UHGV virus genome: UHGV-0088363
Reading direction: 5' to 3' (one strand)
Source: a virus
DNA length: 12,800 bases
The position numbers and the translations under genes were made by a program. Shown here piece after piece: positions 1 through 12,718 of this stretch (its first letter is position 1; each line of letters begins with the position of its first letter). The notes beneath the pieces are model-generated. The model was not told the origin of the DNA, did no database searches, and worked only from the letters and a program-made list of their open reading frames with translations.

Positions 1-178
1 TGAGTTTTGGGTTTAGCGTGACAAGTTTGCGAGGGTGATCGGAGTAATCAGTGAATAGCTCTCCGCCAACAATGACGTCATAACCATGATTTCTGGTTTT
101 CTGCCGTCCGTTATCAGTTCCCTCTGACCACGCCAGCATATCGAGGAACGCCTTACGTTGATTATTGATTTCCACCAT
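1..178 (-). CDS. R: Endolysin R (lambda R-type), N-terminal part; gene continues beyond the window start
   Basis: Reverse complement from 178 reads ATG GTG GAA ATC AAT AAT CAA CGT AAG GCG TTC CTC GAT ATG CTG GCG TGG = [17 protein letters not shown], the lambda R N-terminus as I recall it. Start overlaps the S stop as in lambda. Confidence 0.9.
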
Positions 179-485
179 CTTCTACTCCGGCTTTTTTAGC
201 AGCGAAGCGTTTGATAAGCGAACCAATCGAGTCAGTACCGATGTAGCCGATGAACACGCTCGTTATATAAGCGAGATTGCTACTTAGTCCGGCGAAGTCG
301 AGAAGGTCACGAATGAACCAGGCGATAATGGCGCACATCGTTGCGTCGATTACTGTTTTTGTAAACGCACCGCCATTATATCTGCCGCGAAGGTACGCCA
401 TTGCAAACGCAAGGATTGCCCCGATGCCTTGTTCCTTTGCCGCGAGAATGGCGGCTAACAGGTCATGTTTTTCTGGCATCTTCAT
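162..485 (-). CDS. S: Class I holin S (S107/S105 dual-start type)
   Basis: 107-aa ORF beginning [22 protein letters not shown], essentially the lambda S sequence as recalled, including the Met-Lys-Met dual start; hydrophobic segments; sits immediately upstream of R. Confidence 0.95.
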
Positions 486-530
486 GTCTTAGCCCCAATA
501 AGGGGATTTGCTCTATTTAATTAGGAATAA

Positions 531-569
531 GGGCAAAACGGCAGGAGGTTGTTAGCGCAACCTCTTGCC
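531..569 (-). terminator. GC-rich hairpin followed by a U-tract in the S leader (lambda-homologous element)
   Basis: On the minus strand: GGCAAGAGG-loop-CCTCCTGCC (9-bp stem, one mismatch) followed by GTTTTGCCC. The surrounding 486..660 resembles the lambda S-upstream leader from memory. Confidence 0.35.
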
Positions 570-656
570 ACCCACTTTCACGAAGATCATGTGTAGAAGG
601 CCGCAGCGTAACTATCACTGATGAATTCAGGATAGTCAGTGGCTACGGCTCAGTTA

Positions 657-732
657 TGGTGCTGGTTAACGGACTTGAACCGCTACCCATTCGCTTACAA
701 GGCGACTGCTCTACCATTGGAGCTAAACCAGC
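657..732 (-). tRNA. tRNA gene, anticodon read as UGU (Thr-like), encoded CCA end
   Basis: Minus-strand sequence folds by hand as a 76-nt cloverleaf: acceptor GCTGGTT/AACCAGC (7 bp), D-stem GCTC/GAGC with GG in the loop, anticodon loop CTTGTAA, T-stem with T-loop TTCAAGT, discriminator A, CCA. One G-A pair at the top of the anticodon stem. Confidence 0.6.
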
Positions 733-737
733 ATGTT

Positions 738-812
738 TGGCGGGACAGCGTGGACTCGAACCACGATAAGAAGGTTAACAGCCTTCCGTAATGACCTTTA
801 TACGACTGACCC
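738..812 (-). tRNA. tRNA-like gene, anticodon read as GUU (Asn-like), possibly degenerate
   Basis: 75-nt cloverleaf 5 nt upstream of the previous tRNA: perfect anticodon stem GAAGG/CCTTC with loop CTGTTAA, perfect T-stem CGTGG/CCACG with T-loop TTCGAGT, then GCCA. Acceptor and D stems each have one mismatch. Confidence 0.45.
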
Positions 813-866
813 AAATAAAAAAAGCCACCGTTGCAACTTAAGAGTCACTAACGGCAGCTTACATCT

Positions 867-1379
867 TTAAACGGTATGATATTTCATTCTGGCTGCCTCA
901 AAAGCCGCAGCGGCAAGTTCGGCAGTGTCATGGTATCCAAGGTTAATACACTTTCCAGACGCATTAATTCTTGCTCTCCATTTCCCGTACTTAGCATCCC
1001 AAGACACGCCACGGTATCCAGATTTATTATTCTTCTGAATTTTCCTGTTTTGCATATTTTCGGAATGAGTGACAAGACGAAGATTTGATATCCGGTTATC
1101 TGTTCTTACCCTGTTGATGTGATCAATAAAACCATCTGGCATGGTGCCATAAACAATCAACCATGCCAGTCTGTGAGCAGGGTATGCTTTACCATTAATC
1201 ATAATCATTAAATACCCATCAGAATTTATTGATGAGCATTTCTTGAAAGCAAAACGAGAGTTCCATGTCAAAGTGGTCCTCTCTCTCCCCTGCCTCCACC
1301 TCCAGTGAAAGTCGCCTGATGATGGATTGTAATCAACAACAGAAAGCACCATTTCTGGCGTTAATTTTATTTCTTTCAT
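867..1379 (-). CDS. HNH homing endonuclease with C-terminal AP2-type DNA-binding domain (copy 1)
   Basis: 170-aa ORF with HNH motif DHINRVRTDNRISNLRLVTHSENMQN followed by SGYRGVSWDAKYGKWRARI...LGYHDTAELAAAAFEAA (AP2-like). RBS AAGGTAAAG upstream of the ATG. AT-rich relative to flanks. Confidence 0.8.
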   Translation of the reverse strand: MKEIKLTPEMVLSVVDYNPSSGDFHWRWRQGRERTTLTWNSRFAFKKCSSINSDGYLMIMINGKAYPAHRLAWLIVYGTMPDGFIDHINRVRTDNRISNLRLVTHSENMQNRKIQKNNKSGYRGVSWDAKYGKWRARINASGKCINLGYHDTAELAAAAFEAARMKYHTV

Positions 1380-1500
1380 CGCTTTACCTTAGGGATAGAG
1401 CCTGTTCGCGTAGATATGACAGCCAAGAGCGGAGCGATGTTTCCACCACCATATCTCAGGCCCATATCACTAAGACTCTTGTTTTGATTGCACGCGAATG

Positions 1501-1525
1501 CAAAAAAGCCCACAGGAGGTGGGCT
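1501..1525 (-). terminator. Rho-independent terminator downstream of pR' (tR'-type)
   Basis: Minus-strand RNA AGCCCAC-CUCCU-GUGGGCU (perfect 7-bp stem, 5-nt loop) followed by UUUUUUG, about 55 nt downstream of the predicted late promoter. Confidence 0.6.
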
Positions 1526-1557
1526 TGTGATGGTTGCTGAATGCAAAAGCAGCAGCA

Positions 1558-1596
1558 TATGTGAATATTATGGCTAAATGGATAATTGCATGTCAA
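1558..1596 (-). promoter_or_regulatory. Late promoter pR' (Q-dependent late operon promoter)
   Basis: Minus strand has a perfect -35 TTGACA (1591..1596), an 18-nt spacer and -10 CATAAT (1567..1572), abutting the Q stop codon. Confidence 0.55.
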
Positions 1597-2092
1597 GGCC
1601 TTTAACAGCAACATGCTTAACTTTCTCAACACGTTTACGCATTTTGAAAGCATTTTGCATTGGCTGGTACAAAACAAATAACGACGCTTTCAGGATGTCG
1701 TCAATTTCGTTTCTACAGGTTACCAGTGAAGGTTTTCTCCATCCCTCGCCACCACGTCCACACATCTTGCGTGGCTTTGCAGTCGCGTGATAGTAGGATG
1801 CAATTGCTCGCTTAGATGAACCATGAGCATAGTAGCTGAGGAGGATGCCAAAGGCTTTCTTGTCAATGTACATGACGGAATCGACGACCTGAGAAATCAA
1901 CATTCCATCATCATCATTACACATTGGCCTTGTCATAACTCTTCCCGGCTCTACGCTCTCCATGAACTTCGCTATTACGCTGCTCATGCGCTTTTCCAGA
2001 CGACCTGAATAAACCCATGCGCCCCACAGTTCAAGCCAGCCATTCAGCCACTCATGCTGTTCTTTGGTGAGGTTTAGTTCTCTTATGCCCAT
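1574..2092 (-). CDS. Q: Late antiterminator Q, non-lambda type (QuuD/phage 21-like family)
   Basis: 172-aa ORF with the motif pattern I recall for the short Q family (WGAW ... CNDDD ... YY.HG); RBS AAGGGAGAAGG; position immediately upstream of pR'. Not similar to lambda Q. Confidence 0.7.
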   Translation of the reverse strand: MGIRELNLTKEQHEWLNGWLELWGAWVYSGRLEKRMSSVIAKFMESVEPGRVMTRPMCNDDDGMLISQVVDSVMYIDKKAFGILLSYYAHGSSKRAIASYYHATAKPRKMCGRGGEGWRKPSLVTCRNEIDDILKASLFVLYQPMQNAFKMRKRVEKVKHVAVKGLDMQLSI

Positions 2093-2135
2093 GCGCCTTC
2101 TCCCTTGTTATCTGGAATGATTTTTACTGAGAACG

Positions 2136-2741
2136 TCATGCAGCCTCACTTCTGCTGTTTCGCAGTTTTTTAAGTTTCTGTTGATACTCCGCCTTGATGG
2201 TCCTGCACTCTTCGACAGTCCAGCGATGGCGGTTATGGTTTGATTCGATTTCGTCTACTGCTTCCTGCCCGATGCGGTTAATCAGTTCGACGCGATACGG
2301 AACGAGATTTCCGCTTTTGTGCTGGTTGCACACCACGCATTGCTTGTGAATATTGCGTTCATCAAATCGGAGTTGAGGCGCCGCAGCAGTTGTCCGGTAA
2401 TGCCCGGCATCCCACTGAGCAGACGTGAGCGTTCCGCACGAGATACATGGTAAGTCGCGGTCTCTTTCTCTGATGAAGGCGTTTACGGCTTGTTGGGCTT
2501 GTTTAATCCAGTAACTGCGGGGCTTTAAGGCGAGTTTTCGAATCTTAAGTTTATCTTTCTGTTTCTGCTCCTCTCGTCGTCGTTTCTTCTCTGCTGCTTT
2601 TTCCGCTTTTTTGCGCTGTTTGCTTCGTAGTTTGAGTGCTAATTGAGTTCCGTGTTCCGGGCAGCACCACCACTGATTTGAGAATGCCGGGTGAAACCAT
2701 TCCTTGCATATTTTGCATTTCCTTCGCGCTGATTTAGCCAT
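2136..2741 (-). CDS. ninG: NinG / Rap recombination-promoting structure-specific endonuclease
   Basis: 201-aa ORF, near-collinear with lambda NinG as recalled ([52 protein letters not shown]...). Confidence 0.9.
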
Positions 2742-2794
2742 AATCTTCTTCCTCGTGCATTGAGCTATTCTGATCGCTCATCAGTTCTGCGCAG

Positions 2795-3301
2795 TTATGG
2801 TCTACCATGGTTTTCATGAAAACCCAGTTCTTTTTCTGCCCTCTTCCTTTCTGCAATAGCGTCAATGATGCTAGCAAATATTCCAAGATATTTGGTGCGC
2901 CCATCTACGCATATATTCGCAATCCACTTACATCTCTCTTTATTGAAATATACTCCAGTCACTCCTGACGAATTGGTTATTTTTCTCTTTTGGTTCTGTG
3001 CATTCTGTTGGTGTGTAACCAATCGAAGATTAGATAGCCTATTATCTGACCTTACTCCATTTATATGATCAATTTTATACCCTAATGGAATCTCACCATT
3101 ATTTATCATCCATATAACGTGGTGAGCATAAGTAATTACACCATCGATAGTTAACATCCTATAACCATCACTCCTAATGTAACCAGCAACACTGCCAACC
3201 TTAACATTATTAGAAGGAGACACTTTCCATCTAAGTACACCTAAAACATCATCATATGATAATTTATTTCTTAATTCGTCTATGTTGCTTATATTTCTCA
3301 T
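2795..3301 (-). CDS. HNH homing endonuclease with AP2-type domain (copy 2)
   Basis: 168-aa ORF with IDHINGVRSDNRLSNLRLVTHQQNAQN followed by SSGVTGVYFNKERCKWIANI (AP2-like). AT-rich. Its start overlaps the 3' end of ninF. Confidence 0.8.
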   Translation of the reverse strand: MRNISNIDELRNKLSYDDVLGVLRWKVSPSNNVKVGSVAGYIRSDGYRMLTIDGVITYAHHVIWMINNGEIPLGYKIDHINGVRSDNRLSNLRLVTHQQNAQNQKRKITNSSGVTGVYFNKERCKWIANICVDGRTKYLGIFASIIDAIAERKRAEKELGFHENHGRP

Positions 3302-3449
3302 TATGTTCCACCATATTTAAGCATTCATATATACAACGCTCACACACGTGAACTTCCAGCACATGCAGCTTCTGACCGCAATTAGCGCACGTTAAAGCCC
3401 GCTCGACGCTTTCTTTCTGGTATTGAAGGGATTGGGATGGGCTAAGCAT
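3264..3449 (-). CDS. ninF: NinF-like protein with altered C-terminus
   Basis: N-terminal 37 residues [37 protein letters not shown] match lambda NinF as recalled; the C-terminal approx 24 residues overlap the HNH copy 2 start and differ. Confidence 0.7.
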   Translation of the reverse strand: MLSPSQSLQYQKESVERALTCANCGQKLHVLEVHVCERCIYECLNMVEHNEKYKQHRRIKK

Positions 3450-3814
3450 TATTGGATTCTCTGCATCATGAGAAAGACAATCATGGCGGCGCGGAGGGGA
3501 TTTTCATGTATAGCTCGCTTAGATTTACAGTAGGCCACACCGCGTGCACCCCACTCGTCTTCATCGAGATTGATAATGCTAATCCTGTATTTTTCAATAA
3601 TCGGCCATGCGTCTGCTGGGTTTGCGCATGGGTTAAAGGATCCGCGCTCAACTTCTACTTCAACTGCGTCTCCGTTTACAATGTCTCCCTCAAATGAGAT
3701 AAACACCATCGCGCCATTCTCACCTTCTTTGTAATCCGGTGATCCGTTATGAATGGCTTCGAATACCGCCACGTTAATTTCAAAATCACTTAACTGTGAA
3801 TAATCCATTGTCAT
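3449..3814 (-). CDS. Conserved nin-region protein of unknown function
   Basis: ORF starting at the ATG that overlaps the ninE stop (ATGA); its stop overlaps the ninF start (TAATG). Acidic protein beginning [21 protein letters not shown]. The six-frame track extends it to a GTG at 3850. Confidence 0.55.
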
Positions 3815-3987: not shown

Positions 3988-4514
3988 GCCGCCCTCCTGA
4001 CGCCCTGCCCGATCGCCATCAATGCCGCTTTGGATACGGTAGTAAACATCCGTCGAGGACTGATGAACGGTCGCCAAATTAGCAGCATGGAGCCTTTGCT
4101 GTTTCCCTTCTTCTCCAGCCCTGTCGATGGTTCGATAAAATTAATCCGTCCATCAGTGATAATGCGAACTTCGTCGACACTCTCCAGAGCTTTGCTGAAC
4201 CATCCGACTGACATATCCTCTGGCACAAGCATAACTACCGTCTGTCGCTGTTGTATGCACTGCTCAGCGGCTTTTTCCACCCACGGCCTGATATTGCTGT
4301 ACGGTGGGTTATTCCAGATTGCACCGTGGCTTACCCACTCAGAATTGAGCGCGTCGTCGGCCTCAGTTAGCCAGTGAGCACACAGAGCATTTTTGTCGCT
4401 CGCTGCCGAATCCAGCCAGAATCCAAACTCAATATCCAGTGCATCAAAAAGCCAAAGCGGCGTTTGCCAGCAGTCTCTAACTTCTTTTGGTGTTTCTGAT
4501 TTATGCTTAATCAT
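3984..4514 (-). CDS. Phage Dam-type DNA N6-adenine methyltransferase
   Basis: 176-aa ORF with the N6-adenine MTase catalytic motif NPPY ([20 protein letters not shown]) and an N-terminal [26 protein letters not shown] region typical of small phage Dam-family enzymes. Confidence 0.8.
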
Positions 4515-5038
4515 TCAACCCTCGCATATTGCCCGTGATATTTGTTGATAGCCTCACTGGCAACCAAACCAGCAAGATCAAGATCTTCATAGAACCCAAA
4601 ATGCAACCGGCCAAAATCTGTGCGCACTTGAACGGCCCATTTATTTTTTTGCTTGTTCCATAAAACATTTTTTATTCCAGAACGGCTATTGCACTTAGTT
4701 TTCTGATTTCGGCTGTTTGCTATCCGGCTTGCCTCCCTAAGATTTTTTGGGGAATTGTCCAGCCTGTTTCCGTTAATATGGTCAATATTTTTCAATGGCA
4801 TTCTTTTGTTGTGCAGCGCAAAAACAACTACGTGAACAAACATCTGAATGCCTGCAAAACACACCTGTCTATACCCAGATCCATTTATCGATGTTTTAAT
4901 TTCATCTCCGGCCCGGTGGCTGTGGTTGGGGTGTTTTAGCGAGTCCTTTTTGTATCTGACTGTATCTCCGTCTAAATACAGATAATCCTCAATAAGCCGA
5001 TACCTATCTGACGCTGGCGTATTTGATTTGATAGTCAT
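4511..5038 (-). CDS. HNH homing endonuclease with AP2-type domain (copy 3)
   Basis: 175-aa ORF from the ATG overlapping the ninB stop (ATGA); HNH motif IDHINGNRLDNSPKNLREASRIANSRN followed by SGIKNVLWNKQKNKWAVQV...FGFYEDLDLAGLVASEAINKYHG; its stop overlaps the methyltransferase start. Confidence 0.75.
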   Translation of the reverse strand: MTIKSNTPASDRYRLIEDYLYLDGDTVRYKKDSLKHPNHSHRAGDEIKTSINGSGYRQVCFAGIQMFVHVVVFALHNKRMPLKNIDHINGNRLDNSPKNLREASRIANSRNQKTKCNSRSGIKNVLWNKQKNKWAVQVRTDFGRLHFGFYEDLDLAGLVASEAINKYHGQYARVE

Positions 5039-5475
5039 GCAGCCCGATCTCCCCATCTCGCTTTCCACTCCAGAGCCAGTCTCGCTTCGTCTGACCACTT
5101 AACGCCACGCTCTGTACCGAATGCCTGTATAAGCTCTAATAGCTCCGCAAATTCGCCTACACGCATCCTGCTGGTTGACTGGCCTATTACCACAAAGCCA
5201 TTCCCGGCAAGGTTAGGAACAACGTCCTGCTGCTTTAATGCTGCTGTAAAAACGCACTTCCAGCTTTCTGCATCCAGCCAGCGACCATGCCATTCAACCT
5301 GACGCGAAACGTCACCAAGGCAAGCCCAAAGCTTCCGATTTTGGTCTAAGCTGCGGTTGCGCTCCTGAATGGTTACTACGATTGGTTTTGTTGGGTCTGG
5401 AAGGATTTGCTGGATGGCTTGAATGGCGTTCTGCTGATGGATGGGGCTTCTTAGTTCAAACGTTAGTTTCCTCAT
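5035..5475 (-). CDS. ninB: NinB (Orf-family recombination mediator)
   Basis: 146-aa ORF, nearly collinear with lambda NinB as recalled (PDPTKPIVVTIQERNRSLDQNRKLWACLGDVSRQVEWHGRWLDAESWKCVFTAALK...). Confidence 0.9.
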   Translation of the reverse strand: MRKLTFELRSPIHQQNAIQAIQQILPDPTKPIVVTIQERNRSLDQNRKLWACLGDVSRQVEWHGRWLDAESWKCVFTAALKQQDVVPNLAGNGFVVIGQSTSRMRVGEFAELLELIQAFGTERGVKWSDEARLALEWKARWGDRAA

Positions 5476-10331: not shown

Positions 10332-11237
10332 ATGTCGATTAACAGCAATAGCGAATCCCTGCATCAAATGCAGCTTTTCCCTGTAGTAGAGGTTGTTTCT
10401 GATGATATTCCTATGGGCGTTCTCAATGATGGAACTCCTTACCTAACTCTCTACGGTCTCGCAAAGTTATGCGGCATTGATGACACGCCACTGAGGGTGT
10501 TCACATCAAACTGGAACACAGAGAAAAACAAACCCAGAGGTCAAAAAGTAGCTGCGTATTTAGCTGAGAAAGGGTTTCATAACGTCGAAAAGCTATACAC
10601 TCGCGTTTTAAATAGCTCAAACGTGGAAACTCATGCTTATCCTGACTATGTTTGCATGGCTATCCTCCGTTACTACGCTCTAGATGCCACCAATTTTGAT
10701 AGGTCAGTCGCAATAGGTAATTTTGTTCGCTTGGCTGAGTACACGCTTAAGCGAATGATTTATGAAAAGTCAAATTACAACCCAAATGCTTCAATAGATA
10801 TCTCATTCGAGAACTATAGAGCAAGGATTAAGCTAAACGATCAGATACCGACAACTCATTTTGCAGTATTCAGAGAGATAGCTGACATTGCCATGAACCT
10901 GATCGGAGGAGGATTCCCAATGGATGACACCACATCTTTGGATGGAAGTGTTGGAATTCACTGGGGAAAGTATTGGACAGCTAATGGGCTATCTGAGAAA
11001 TTCGGGGAAAGGGTGCAGTACCCACATTTATTCCCCGAAAATTACAGGCAGTCAGCTGCAAATAAGCATATAACAGCTTGGATTTATCCTATTGAGGCAC
11101 TTGGCGTGTTCAGAAAATGGCTACACGATAATTACGCAATGGAAAAACTGCCAAATTACCTTGGGAACAAAAAGATTAGTAACGCCTCCGAGCTATTAGA
11201 GTCGATAAAAAAACCAGCACTCCCAAATAAGCATTGA
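10332..11237 (+). CDS. Unknown 301-aa protein in the position occupied by rexA-rexB in lambda; candidate lysogen-expressed exclusion/defense gene
   Basis: Uninterrupted ORF with RBS AAGGAAAT, co-directional with cI, followed by a terminator; AT-rich versus flanks; no similarity to RexA/RexB and no kinase or NTPase motifs visible by eye. Confidence 0.7.
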   Translation: MSINSNSESLHQMQLFPVVEVVSDDIPMGVLNDGTPYLTLYGLAKLCGIDDTPLRVFTSNWNTEKNKPRGQKVAAYLAEKGFHNVEKLYTRVLNSSNVETHAYPDYVCMAILRYYALDATNFDRSVAIGNFVRLAEYTLKRMIYEKSNYNPNASIDISFENYRARIKLNDQIPTTHFAVFREIADIAMNLIGGGFPMDDTTSLDGSVGIHWGKYWTANGLSEKFGERVQYPHLFPENYRQSAANKHITAWIYPIEALGVFRKWLHDNYAMEKLPNYLGNKKISNASELLESIKKPALPNKH

Positions 11238-11756: not shown

Positions 11757-12083
11757 ATGGATGCACAAACACGCCGCCGCGAACGTCGCGCAGAGAAACA
11801 GGCTCAATGGAAAGCAGCAAATCCCCTGTTAGTTGGGGTAAGCGCAAAACCAGTTAACCGCCCTATTCTCTCGCTGAATCGCAAACCGAAATCACGAGTA
11901 GAAAGCGCACTGAATCCGATAGACCTTACGGTGCTGGCTGAATACCACGAACAGATTGAAAGCAACCTGCAGCGTATTGAGCGCAAGAATCAGCGCACAT
12001 GGTACAGCAAGCCACGCAGTGAAATGGGTGTGACTTGTGTTGGTCGCCAGAAAATGAAATTAGGCAGCAAACCACTTATTTGA
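11757..12083 (+). CDS. N: N antitermination protein
   Basis: 108-aa ORF MDAQTRRRERRAEKQAQWKAANPLLVGVSAKPVNRPILSLNRKPKSRVESALNPIDLTVLAEYH..., arginine-rich motif at the N-terminus; RBS ACAGGAGAATCCAG; the C-terminal approx 20 residues differ from lambda N as recalled. Confidence 0.95.
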   Translation: MDAQTRRRERRAEKQAQWKAANPLLVGVSAKPVNRPILSLNRKPKSRVESALNPIDLTVLAEYHEQIESNLQRIERKNQRTWYSKPRSEMGVTCVGRQKMKLGSKPLI

Positions 12084-12094
12084 GAGGAATTAAT

Positions 12095-12718
12095 ATGTCA
12101 TCAATCCGCTTAACTACGAGAATGAAAGAGGAAATCGCTCGTAACGCTTTAATTAAGTCTGGGTTTTTCACTGAACTTAAAGAAGTAACAAAGTTAAAGA
12201 ACCAGCTTGCACTTGACGCCAGAGTTATTGCGTTTGGCGGTAAAAAGAAAACTGAGGAAGTGGATCAGTTATCATCCAAGTTGGTAGCTATAAGTGAAGA
12301 ACTTGAAAAGATGGGATGTTCATTTTACTCATACGATGTTCGTTCTACTTCAATTTATCTGACTGTATCTGGCAGAAGGGTTGGATGGCATTCATATGGG
12401 AAAGACGGCAACGGCGAAGATATATTGCTCCCTACTCCGACCAAAGATAAATGCATGTTTAGCGCAGAACACGAAATAACAAAAAGGTTTGATGAAATCT
12501 GCGCATTGCAACAAAAACTTGAAGCCAAGAAAAAGGATATCGAATCAAATGTATGGGCTGCTTTGAACTCAGTCACAACAGTTAAGCGACTTATTGAAGT
12601 TTGGCCTGAAAGCAAAGAATTGCTACCAGAAGAAGCAGATAAAGCAAGTACAGCACTTCCTGCTTTACGGGTAGAAGATTTGAATAAGATGATTGGACTT
12701 CCTTCCGAGGCCGCATAG
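12095..12718 (+). CDS. Unknown 207-aa protein immediately downstream of N; candidate moron
   Basis: ATG 11 nt after the N stop with GAGGA inside the N 3' end; AT-rich; charged, coiled-coil-like sequence; followed by a hairpin and T-rich tract. The track's upstream extension (12035) overlaps N and is not used. Confidence 0.65.
   Translation: MSSIRLTTRMKEEIARNALIKSGFFTELKEVTKLKNQLALDARVIAFGGKKKTEEVDQLSSKLVAISEELEKMGCSFYSYDVRSTSIYLTVSGRRVGWHSYGKDGNGEDILLPTPTKDKCMFSAEHEITKRFDEICALQQKLEAKKKDIESNVWAALNSVTTVKRLIEVWPESKELLPEEADKASTALPALRVEDLNKMIGLPSEAA

Follow-up and report, generated by a model that had tools for sequence, protein, structure and literature searches.

The classic interference of P2 with lambda has Old as its effector. 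This nuclease has been shown to kill cells by cutting host tRNA-ThrU at a paired CNG motif, which removes the anticodon stem-loop, and phage tRNA-Thr(UGU) genes rescue cells from it (Nucleic Acids Res 2025, PMC12445682). In these experiments tRNA-Thr21 of phage 21 protected E. coli against P2 Old plus Gam and resisted Old in vitro by means of a shortened anticodon stem and the C28U/G42A changes; the rescue was partial, and was obtained with plasmid-expressed tRNA in cells making Old and Gam, with no phage infection (PMC12445682). AriB, the nuclease of PARIS, targets Lys(UUU), Thr(UGU) and Asn(GUU), of which Lys(UUU) is the main target and host Asn(GUU) a secondary one, and the Lys, Thr and Asn variants encoded by phage T5 jointly neutralise PARIS, with escape requiring the T5 tRNA-Lys (PMC12409363). 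When the AriB site was put back into T5 tRNA-Lys cleavage was not restored, and as such the site alone is not decisive (PMC12409363). Phage 21 itself was announced as a genome with 2 tRNA genes.

Here we report that a stretch of viral DNA of 12.8 kb, referred to throughout as the window, carries two tandem tRNA genes identical to those of phage 21, located between the late promoter and the lysis genes. The window belongs to a mosaic phage of lambdoid or P22-like character, of which it covers the early-right region together with the beginning of the late operon. Transcription runs towards lower coordinates, and the genes include lambda-type cI and cro, cII, an O-like initiator, a DnaB helicase and a nin region with a Dam methylase, NinB, NinX and NinG. 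Its closest whole-window relatives are Sf6 and HK542, at ~98% identity over just under half of the window. It is probable that the two genes are functional elongator tRNAs of the phage-21/Sf6 type, which would supply nuclease-resistant, codon-matched tRNA during late expression. The local order is Q, pR', a terminator, an HNH gene, a phage-21-type tR', tRNA-Asn, tRNA-Thr and holin S, with the following features.

1574..2092, minus strand: late antiterminator Q of the phage-21/Sf6 type (Pfam PF06530 Phage_antitermQ, E 1.2e-25)
1567..1596, minus strand: late promoter pR' (TTGACA, 18 nt, CATAAT), overlapping the end of Q, 11/12 matches
1506..1526, minus strand: first intrinsic terminator of the late leader, HK629 type, an 8-bp stem followed by TTTTTT
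867..1379, minus strand: open reading frame of 170 aa resembling HNH_3 + AP2 homing endonucleases (Pfam HNH_3 E 2e-18, AP2 E 1.6e-8)
815..860, minus strand: phage-21/Sf6-type tR' terminator, nearly the same as the tR' annotated in Sf6 (T-run longer by one T)
738..812, minus strand: tRNA-Asn(GUU), 75 nt, CCA encoded, discriminator G73 (ARAGORN, Rfam)
733..737, minus strand: 5-nt spacer, AACAT on the coding strand (direct reading)
657..732, minus strand: tRNA-Thr(UGU), 76 nt, CCA encoded (ARAGORN, Rfam), the 'tRNA-Thr21' of phage 21
535..569, minus strand: candidate terminator-like hairpin or 3' processing barrier, 12 bp with one A-C mismatch, then U4
162..485, minus strand: lambda-type holin S, the first lysis gene (Pfam PF05106, E 2.4e-30)

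ARAGORN called a tRNA-Thr with anticodon tgt at 657-732 and a tRNA-Asn with anticodon gtt at 738-812, both on the minus strand, so that Asn is transcribed before Thr; it called no other tRNA in the whole 12.8 kb window. Both genes covered the full Rfam tRNA model RF00005, at 660-732 on the minus strand for Thr (61.5 bits, E 1.4e-11) and at 741-812 on the minus strand for Asn (55.3 bits, E 6.8e-10), both well above the gathering score of 29. On the plus strand the encoded CCA ends appear as TGG at 657-659 and 738-740, and the minimum-energy fold of either sequence is a cloverleaf. A first-pass annotation, made by a model from the letters of the window, had proposed two tandem cloverleaf tRNAs with anticodons UGU (Thr) and GUU (Asn) and CCA ends, lying 5 nt apart, and ARAGORN and Rfam agree on this description, with ARAGORN returning the same anticodons. 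The Rfam alignments place U8, A14, the D-loop GG and the T-loop GTTC(G/A)A(G)T in both genes, and the 7-nt anticodon loops, CUGUUAA and CUUGUAA, both have U33 and a purine at 37. The threonine identity elements G1-C72, C2-G71, G35 and U36 are present in the sequence of the one gene, and the asparagine identity elements G34, U35, U36 and G73 in that of the other. AsnRS uses the GUU anticodon and G73 as identity elements.

This Asn-Thr cassette, which automatic annotation pipelines call, is already known, since it is identical in phage 21 and annotated in Sf6, in other phages and in E. coli genomes. All 156 of its 156 nt are identical to phage 21 (AJ237660, 4702-4857), and it is also 100% identical to Sf6 (AF547987, features 36065-36220), whose record lists, directly after tR', a tRNA-Asn and a tRNA-Thr, each 'similar to phage 21'. 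The region is matched by 171 phage records, in many of which both tRNAs are annotated, and annotated copies occur in many P22-like and lambdoid phages. The cassette is also present in 369 of 5426 complete E. coli genomes (~7%), where RefSeq labels the genes tRNA-Thr and tRNA-Asn. Among GTDB species representatives the true cassette was found only in Escherichia sp., E. albertii and Shimwellia, together with two probably mis-binned MAG contigs, and no chromosomal donor of the Asn gene was found among these representatives. The remaining 10 GTDB matches were rejected as chance GGAAGG...CCTTCC hairpins. An identical match in Origami2-DE3 was considered as a lambda-DE3 prophage and rejected, its neighbourhood being a phage-21-like Q-tRNA-S21 segment beside plasmid-type genes.

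Stx phages of the 933W type carry an ileZ-argN-argO cluster, encoding Ile/Arg rare-codon tRNAs, downstream of pR' and upstream of stx. The first-pass annotation had stated that tRNA clusters at this position in lambdoid phages typically have different identities; it probably had this Ile/Arg cluster in mind, and the statement is misleading, as the Asn-Thr pair is standard in phage 21, Sf6 and many P22-like and lambdoid phages. The anticodons in the window, GUU and UGU, are not of the Ile/Arg identity.

The late-operon setting of the tRNAs can be followed from Q to the lysis genes. The 3' end of Q is identical to Sf6 gene 59. The pR' assigned here is the top sigma-70-like site within positions 1-3500, and as far as the -10 element it aligns colinearly and almost without change with the pR' annotated in Sf6, which the Sf6 record describes as 'nearly identical to phage 21 late promoter'; downstream of the -10 the leader of the window diverges from Sf6. 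The HK629 record puts its 'putative pR'' elsewhere, after the first terminator. We prefer, on the strength of homology, the probable promoter shared with Sf6 and phage 21 over the placement in the HK629 record, and under either placement the tRNAs come after pR' and at least one terminator. The leader fold at the first terminator has an energy of -21.5 kcal/mol (z -3.5), and a rho-independent terminator is annotated at the matching place in HK629. The HNH open reading frame, which is also matched by PADLOC homing-endonuclease models, is a 513-nt insertion between pR' and the phage-21-type tR'; it is absent from this locus in Sf6 and present in HK629, and the variant with the insertion is in the minority (6 of 120 IMG/VR contigs, and 31 E. 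coli genomes). The tR' hairpin (-20.2 kcal/mol, z -4.15) is followed by U7, and this U-run stops 3-4 nt upstream of G1 of tRNA-Asn. As the whole block from Q through the terminator and HNH gene to tR' is common to the window and HK629 at 99.4% identity, and HK629 is viable, it is a working arrangement. The first-pass annotation was thus right in placing the tRNAs between the late promoter and the lysis genes, and overlooked the HNH gene and the two intrinsic terminators that lie between. Downstream, the candidate hairpin at 535..569 sits between tRNA-Thr and S. In phage L there is an annotated terminator downstream of the tRNAs.

A promoter scan upstream of the tRNAs found no promoter-like site besides pR'. 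Taken with pR' and the leader terminators, this anatomy implies that the tRNAs would be made only from Q-antiterminated late transcripts, and as such they should be expressed during lytic growth. RNA polymerase would start at pR' and would normally halt at the leader terminators, of which there are two here with the HNH gene between them, while polymerase modified by Q would continue through the tRNAs into the genes for lysis and the virion. Both tRNAs would be released from this transcript by RNase P and the 3' trimming enzymes of the host, with no need for CCA addition because CCA is encoded, and charging by host AsnRS and ThrRS is expected because the identity elements are present. For phage L, previous authors left two alternatives standing, excision of these tRNAs from the late mRNA or expression from a promoter of their own (PMC8022706).

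Sequence variation bears on whether both genes work. In a set of 120 IMG/VR contigs retrieved with an 18-nt pattern from the Asn anticodon arm, Asn is followed by Thr at identical spacing in about 105. Nucleotide diversity across these contigs is 0.007 in Asn and 0.013 in Thr, values in which 18 Asn and 9 Thr positions are fixed by the selection pattern, against 0.11 in the spacer and 0.12-0.31 in the flanks, where it largely reflects mosaic replacement rather than point change; the third base of the spacer is a C/T polymorphism. On this comparison the locus appears as a conserved island with exchange points at both edges. Its most conserved element is the Asn gene, with 88 of 114 copies identical. 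For tRNA-Thr, an alignment of cassette variants with P7 Thr and host thrU gave clear covariation, with 9 pairs changed on both sides, 95% of cells paired and 0/500 shuffles reaching the observed value, and the signal was lost when partner columns were slid. Inside the 21-type lineage compensatory Thr changes are also found, from GC to UA at 5:68 and from AU to GC at 49:65. The 15 distinct Asn variants, 98% identical and with the anticodon arm fixed by the search pattern, gave no covariation signal, and none is possible between variants so nearly identical.

The first-pass annotation had suggested that the gene at 738-812 may be a pseudo-tRNA on account of mismatches in its acceptor and D stems. 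These mismatches, U4-U69 and U13-U22, are real, and a third was overlooked, the G27-A43 mismatch at the top of the anticodon stem of tRNA-Thr. If the Asn gene were decaying and Thr alone were functional, the two non-Watson-Crick pairs would be readily accounted for, as would the ViennaRNA centroid structure, which has no D arm, and the presence of degenerate second tRNAs at the same locus in phage L and JLK-2012; covariation, in a sequence that barely varies, gives the gene no support of its own. However, the gene is called by ARAGORN and scores 55.3 bits against the threshold of 29, with U8, A14, G18G19, TTCGAGT, G73 and the GUU anticodon all kept, so that its tertiary and AsnRS identity positions are intact. 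The mismatches are moreover fixed rather than scattered (in 13/15 and 15/15 distinct variants), and where the pair 4:69 does vary, which is rare, the change is U4 to G or U69 to G and gives a wobble pair. It is the adjoining Thr that is scrambled in phage L and JLK-2012, next to an identical Asn. Because the gene is conserved, retains its tertiary and identity nucleotides and carries mismatches that are fixed rather than scattered, we reject the pseudo-tRNA reading, which we regard as very improbable. A 13:22 mismatch is common in working tRNAs.

The island-like conservation of the cassette could also reflect tRNA-like structures that act mainly in cis, as RNase P/E processing sites or as targets of recombination or homing. 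In keeping with this, the cassette is a discrete exchangeable module, mosaic breakpoints fall at its edges, and recombinants with host thrU exist; in HK629 it is swapped exactly, boundary to boundary, for an unrelated 189 nt. An HNH homing-endonuclease-like gene also adjoins the cassette here, and in T5 the tRNA genes have HNH genes scattered between them. A mainly cis-acting role would, however, leave unexplained the conserved anticodons, identity elements, CCA ends and compensatory stem changes, and the HNH gene is nearby in few carriers (the same 6 of 120 IMG/VR contigs). The published rescue furthermore depends on decoding, since a change of the UGU anticodon in a rescue tRNA-Thr abolishes protection (PMC12445682). 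We therefore consider that structures serving chiefly in cis are a most improbable explanation, the least probable of those weighed here. The 189-nt segment of HK629 had no Rfam match and no convincing open reading frame; it was compared with lambda as a candidate source and rejected as lambda sequence.

If the genes are functional tRNAs, the simplest benefit would be supply of the codons that they read. In E. coli, thrU is the sole UGU tRNA (PMC12445682). ACA occurs 17.2 times per 1000 codons in Sf6 late genes and 14.3 in the open reading frames of the window. In one stretch of the E. coli chromosome the corresponding values are 6.2 for ordinary genes and 3.0 for those encoding ribosomal proteins and elongation factors. 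This is an enrichment of 2-3 times over ordinary and ~5 times over highly expressed E. coli genes, whereas Asn codons are enriched only ~1.3-fold over E. coli genes. Codon supplementation alone, for ACA and to a lesser extent AAC/AAU, with any nuclease resistance incidental, would be in agreement with these figures, and the authors of the phage L study proposed an Asn codon role for their tRNA, 24/25 Asn codons of the coat gene being AAC (PMC8022706).

Codon usage does not, however, separate phages with the cassette from those without. Among 67 non-redundant viral contigs with the same holin S, 15 carry the cassette and 52 have no tRNA there, and in the 10 kb of late genes downstream the density of ACA is 11.4 per 1000 with the cassette and 12.4 with none (p 0.35), and that of Asn codons 44.7 and 44.3 (p 0.98), in an estimate based on open reading frames and on contigs that are mutually related. 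Codon demand therefore does not track carriage of the cassette, which appears to behave as an accessory module whose carriage is not set by codon usage. Such behaviour fits a benefit that depends on the contents of the host. E. coli K-12 has four asn tRNA genes, and as such Asn is not obviously limiting. The altered anticodon stem of tRNA-Thr21 also has a demonstrated effect on Old, which a role in codon supply alone would leave as incidental. Codon supplementation as the whole explanation thus seems to us rather unlikely, and tRNAs that are both codon-matched and nuclease-resistant remain the preferred reading.

The anticodon arms of the two tRNAs and of their host counterparts bear directly on nuclease resistance.

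tRNA-Thr of the window: UCG/CGA at positions 28-30/40-42, UAAGCG at positions 36-41
Host thrU: CUG/CAG at positions 28-30/40-42, UAAUCA at positions 36-41
tRNA-Asn of the window: AAG/CUU at positions 28-30/40-42, UAACCU at positions 36-41
Host asnT: CGG/CCG at positions 28-30/40-42, a paired CNG, and UAAUCC at positions 36-41

The tRNA-Thr of the window has the sequence of tRNA-Thr21, with G27-A43 unpaired and U28-A42 replacing the host C28-G42, a replacement that breaks the paired CNG motif. It thereby shows the pattern of an Old-resistant tRNA, namely the UGU anticodon, an altered CNG motif at 28-30/40-42 and a shortened anticodon stem. Resistance to Old and rescue from it have been published for the identical tRNA-Thr21, and the most likely role of the cassette has in this way recently been demonstrated for its Thr half.

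Reading of the anticodon arms indicates that both phage tRNAs are without both cleavage motifs, the paired CNG and the UAAU site; by sequence, the AriB site U36-A-A-U39-C40, with N41 following, is substituted in both. It may be that Asn and Thr together form a two-part counter-defence cassette against Toprim anticodon-stem nucleases (Old and AriB-like enzymes), a reading which we advance only tentatively, as possible rather than probable. Such nucleases are carried by competing P2-like prophages and P4-like satellites. In favour of a two-part cassette are the documented targeting of both host counterparts, the loss of the motifs in both phage copies and the same pair of anticodons, apparently assembled independently in P1/P7. 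In the work on Old, host Asn(GUU) was among the tRNAs whose cleavage was timed against that of ThrU, the fastest to be cut, and our literature search found no published test of the tRNA-Asn of this cassette. Several observations speak against a defence role for the Asn gene. A tRNA-Lys(UUU), the main target of AriB and needed for full coverage of its targets, is absent from the 12.8 kb window by ARAGORN; the cassette alone could therefore not neutralise the PARIS of E. coli B185, the only one characterised. P1/P7 also have an Asn-Thr pair, and there UAAUCA is retained in the P7 Asn and the paired CNG in the P7 Thr, so that loss of the motifs is not general. An unrelated tRNA would by default lack such motifs, and restoring the site to T5 tRNA-Lys did not bring back cleavage (PMC12409363). 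Codon supply alone could account for a benefit.

Functional, nuclease-resistant elongator tRNAs remain the reading that we favour for the pair as a whole. Once released and charged, the tRNAs would sustain late-gene translation at ACA and AAC/AAU codons. ACA would otherwise depend on a single minor, single-copy E. coli tRNA (thrU), yet it is the codon that is 2-3 times commoner in these phages. In a host whose tRNA-ThrU is cut by the P2 prophage nuclease Old, the phage tRNA-Thr would replace it, and tRNA-Asn may likewise stand in for a host tRNA that is a secondary target of this class of Toprim tRNases. As a feature the cassette is ordinary, having been annotated at least since the Sf6 record. 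It nevertheless offers a clean example from a temperate phage of tRNAs that would outlast tRNA-cutting defences, the Thr gene being the very sequence tested against P2 Old. If the two-part reading is true, tRNA-Asn21 together with tRNA-Thr21 should rescue better from Old or AriB, and this would explain the inheritance of the pair as a unit.

The locus can thus be set beside the described systems. Compared with phage 21 and Sf6, the window has the same gene order, 5-nt spacer, 21-type Q and location immediately after tR' and before the lysis genes; it differs in having the 513-nt HNH gene and a second leader and terminator between the -10 and tR', and in being without 71 nt between tRNA-Thr and S. 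Its tRNA-Thr is the same sequence as the published tRNA-Thr21, which was assayed without the neighbouring tRNA-Asn. The cluster of Stx phages is comparably placed, with Q/pR'/tR' upstream and late genes downstream of it, and its sequences are unrelated. The pair of P1/P7 has the same anticodons in the same order, adjacent with a 2-nt gap, and its Thr is 78% identical to that of the window. Its Asn, however, at only 56% identity is at least as distant from that of the window as host asnT is, an indication that the pairing arose on more than one occasion. The P1/P7 pair lies in a C1-controlled operon, in contrast to the Q-dependent late leader of the window, and of the two motifs that P7 retains, UAAUCA in Asn and the paired CNG in Thr, the window pair keeps neither. 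With the anti-PARIS tRNAs of T5 the window shares two of three anticodons, and its tRNA-Thr has G39 like T5 tRNA-Thr, where the host has U39; both tRNAs of the window are without U36-A-A-U39 and differ from the host at 41. Unlike the T5 set, that of the window is without Lys(UUU), and it shows no sequence relationship to the T5 genes. T5 is virulent and encodes ~25 tRNAs, in contrast to the temperate phage of the window with its two, for which resistance to AriB is putative.

The second gene of the tRNA-Asn(GUU)-tRNA-Thr(UGU) cassette exists in altered forms in several relatives. In JLK-2012 (positions 781-856 of its locus, L004) and in about 10 of the viral contigs from IMG/VR that were retrieved through the Asn anticodon arm, the Thr gene is chimeric, following the phage tRNA-Thr for its first 25 nt and resembling thrU, the E. 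coli host gene for tRNA-Thr(UGU), thereafter. From position 26 on, one of these copies is identical to thrU; others have a broken anticodon stem and receive no ARAGORN call. These chimeric genes look like the product of recombination between a prophage tRNA gene and host thrU. A third tRNA, Gly(UCC), is often present at the loci that carry them. The second tRNA of phage L (positions 781-852 of its locus, L003) is annotated as tRNA-Leu(UAA); ARAGORN returns no call for this gene, its anticodon arm lacks the standard pairing of a 5-bp stem and a 7-nt loop, and it appears to derive from the Thr gene by decay.

In HK629, JEP4 and E212 both tRNAs are exchanged, boundary to boundary, for an unrelated and unannotated segment of 189 nt (positions 2312-2500 of the HK629 locus, L002), which has no Rfam match and contains no convincing ORF. 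The sequence around this segment is unaltered in all three, both upstream, where tR' lies, and downstream. The GenBank record of HK629 also places a 'putative late promoter pR'' at positions 1707-1712 of L002, equivalent to 1409-1414 of the window and 3' of the first terminator. The sequence at this position is TCTACG, which is unlike a promoter, and the promoter homologous to those of Sf6 and phage 21 lies further upstream, over the end of Q. The placement of pR' in the HK629 record is probably a mis-annotation. An identical Asn-Thr cassette is also present in E. coli Origami2-DE3, a strain used for expression in the laboratory (positions 4019-4174 of its locus, L147), where it accompanies a Q of the phage-21 type and a holin of class II and adjoins plasmid-type genes (ParB, Ssb).

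Between tRNA-Thr and the holin gene S the window lacks, at about 532/533, 71 nt that Sf6, HK629 and nearly every relative have. The spacing from the start of tRNA-Asn to the start of S is long in 56 IMG/VR contigs (398 nt in 50 and 397 nt in 6), and the 326 nt of the window recurs in just one; the longer form is the one seen in every E. coli genome that carries the HNH variant (31 of 31). The deletion in the window begins right after a terminator-like hairpin (540-569, followed by U4).

An ORF of 301 aa between cI and N (10332-11237, plus strand) has a strong match to BstA, an abortive-infection defence protein encoded by prophages (PADLOC PDLC02356, E 1.3e-105), and a Pfam search with it gave no match; in lambda this place is taken by rexAB. 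The ORF 3' of N (12035-12718, plus strand) has an Nmad5 domain (nucleotide modification associated domain 5; PF18757, E 4e-72). Three separate ORFs resembling HNH_3 homing endonucleases lie within the 12.8 kb of this early/late region:

867-1379, minus strand, HNH_3 homing-endonuclease-like ORF with an AP2 domain, directly 5' of the tRNA cassette
2795-3301, minus strand, HNH_3 homing-endonuclease-like ORF
4511-5098, minus strand, HNH_3 homing-endonuclease-like ORF

HNH genes are likewise scattered among the tRNA genes of T5.
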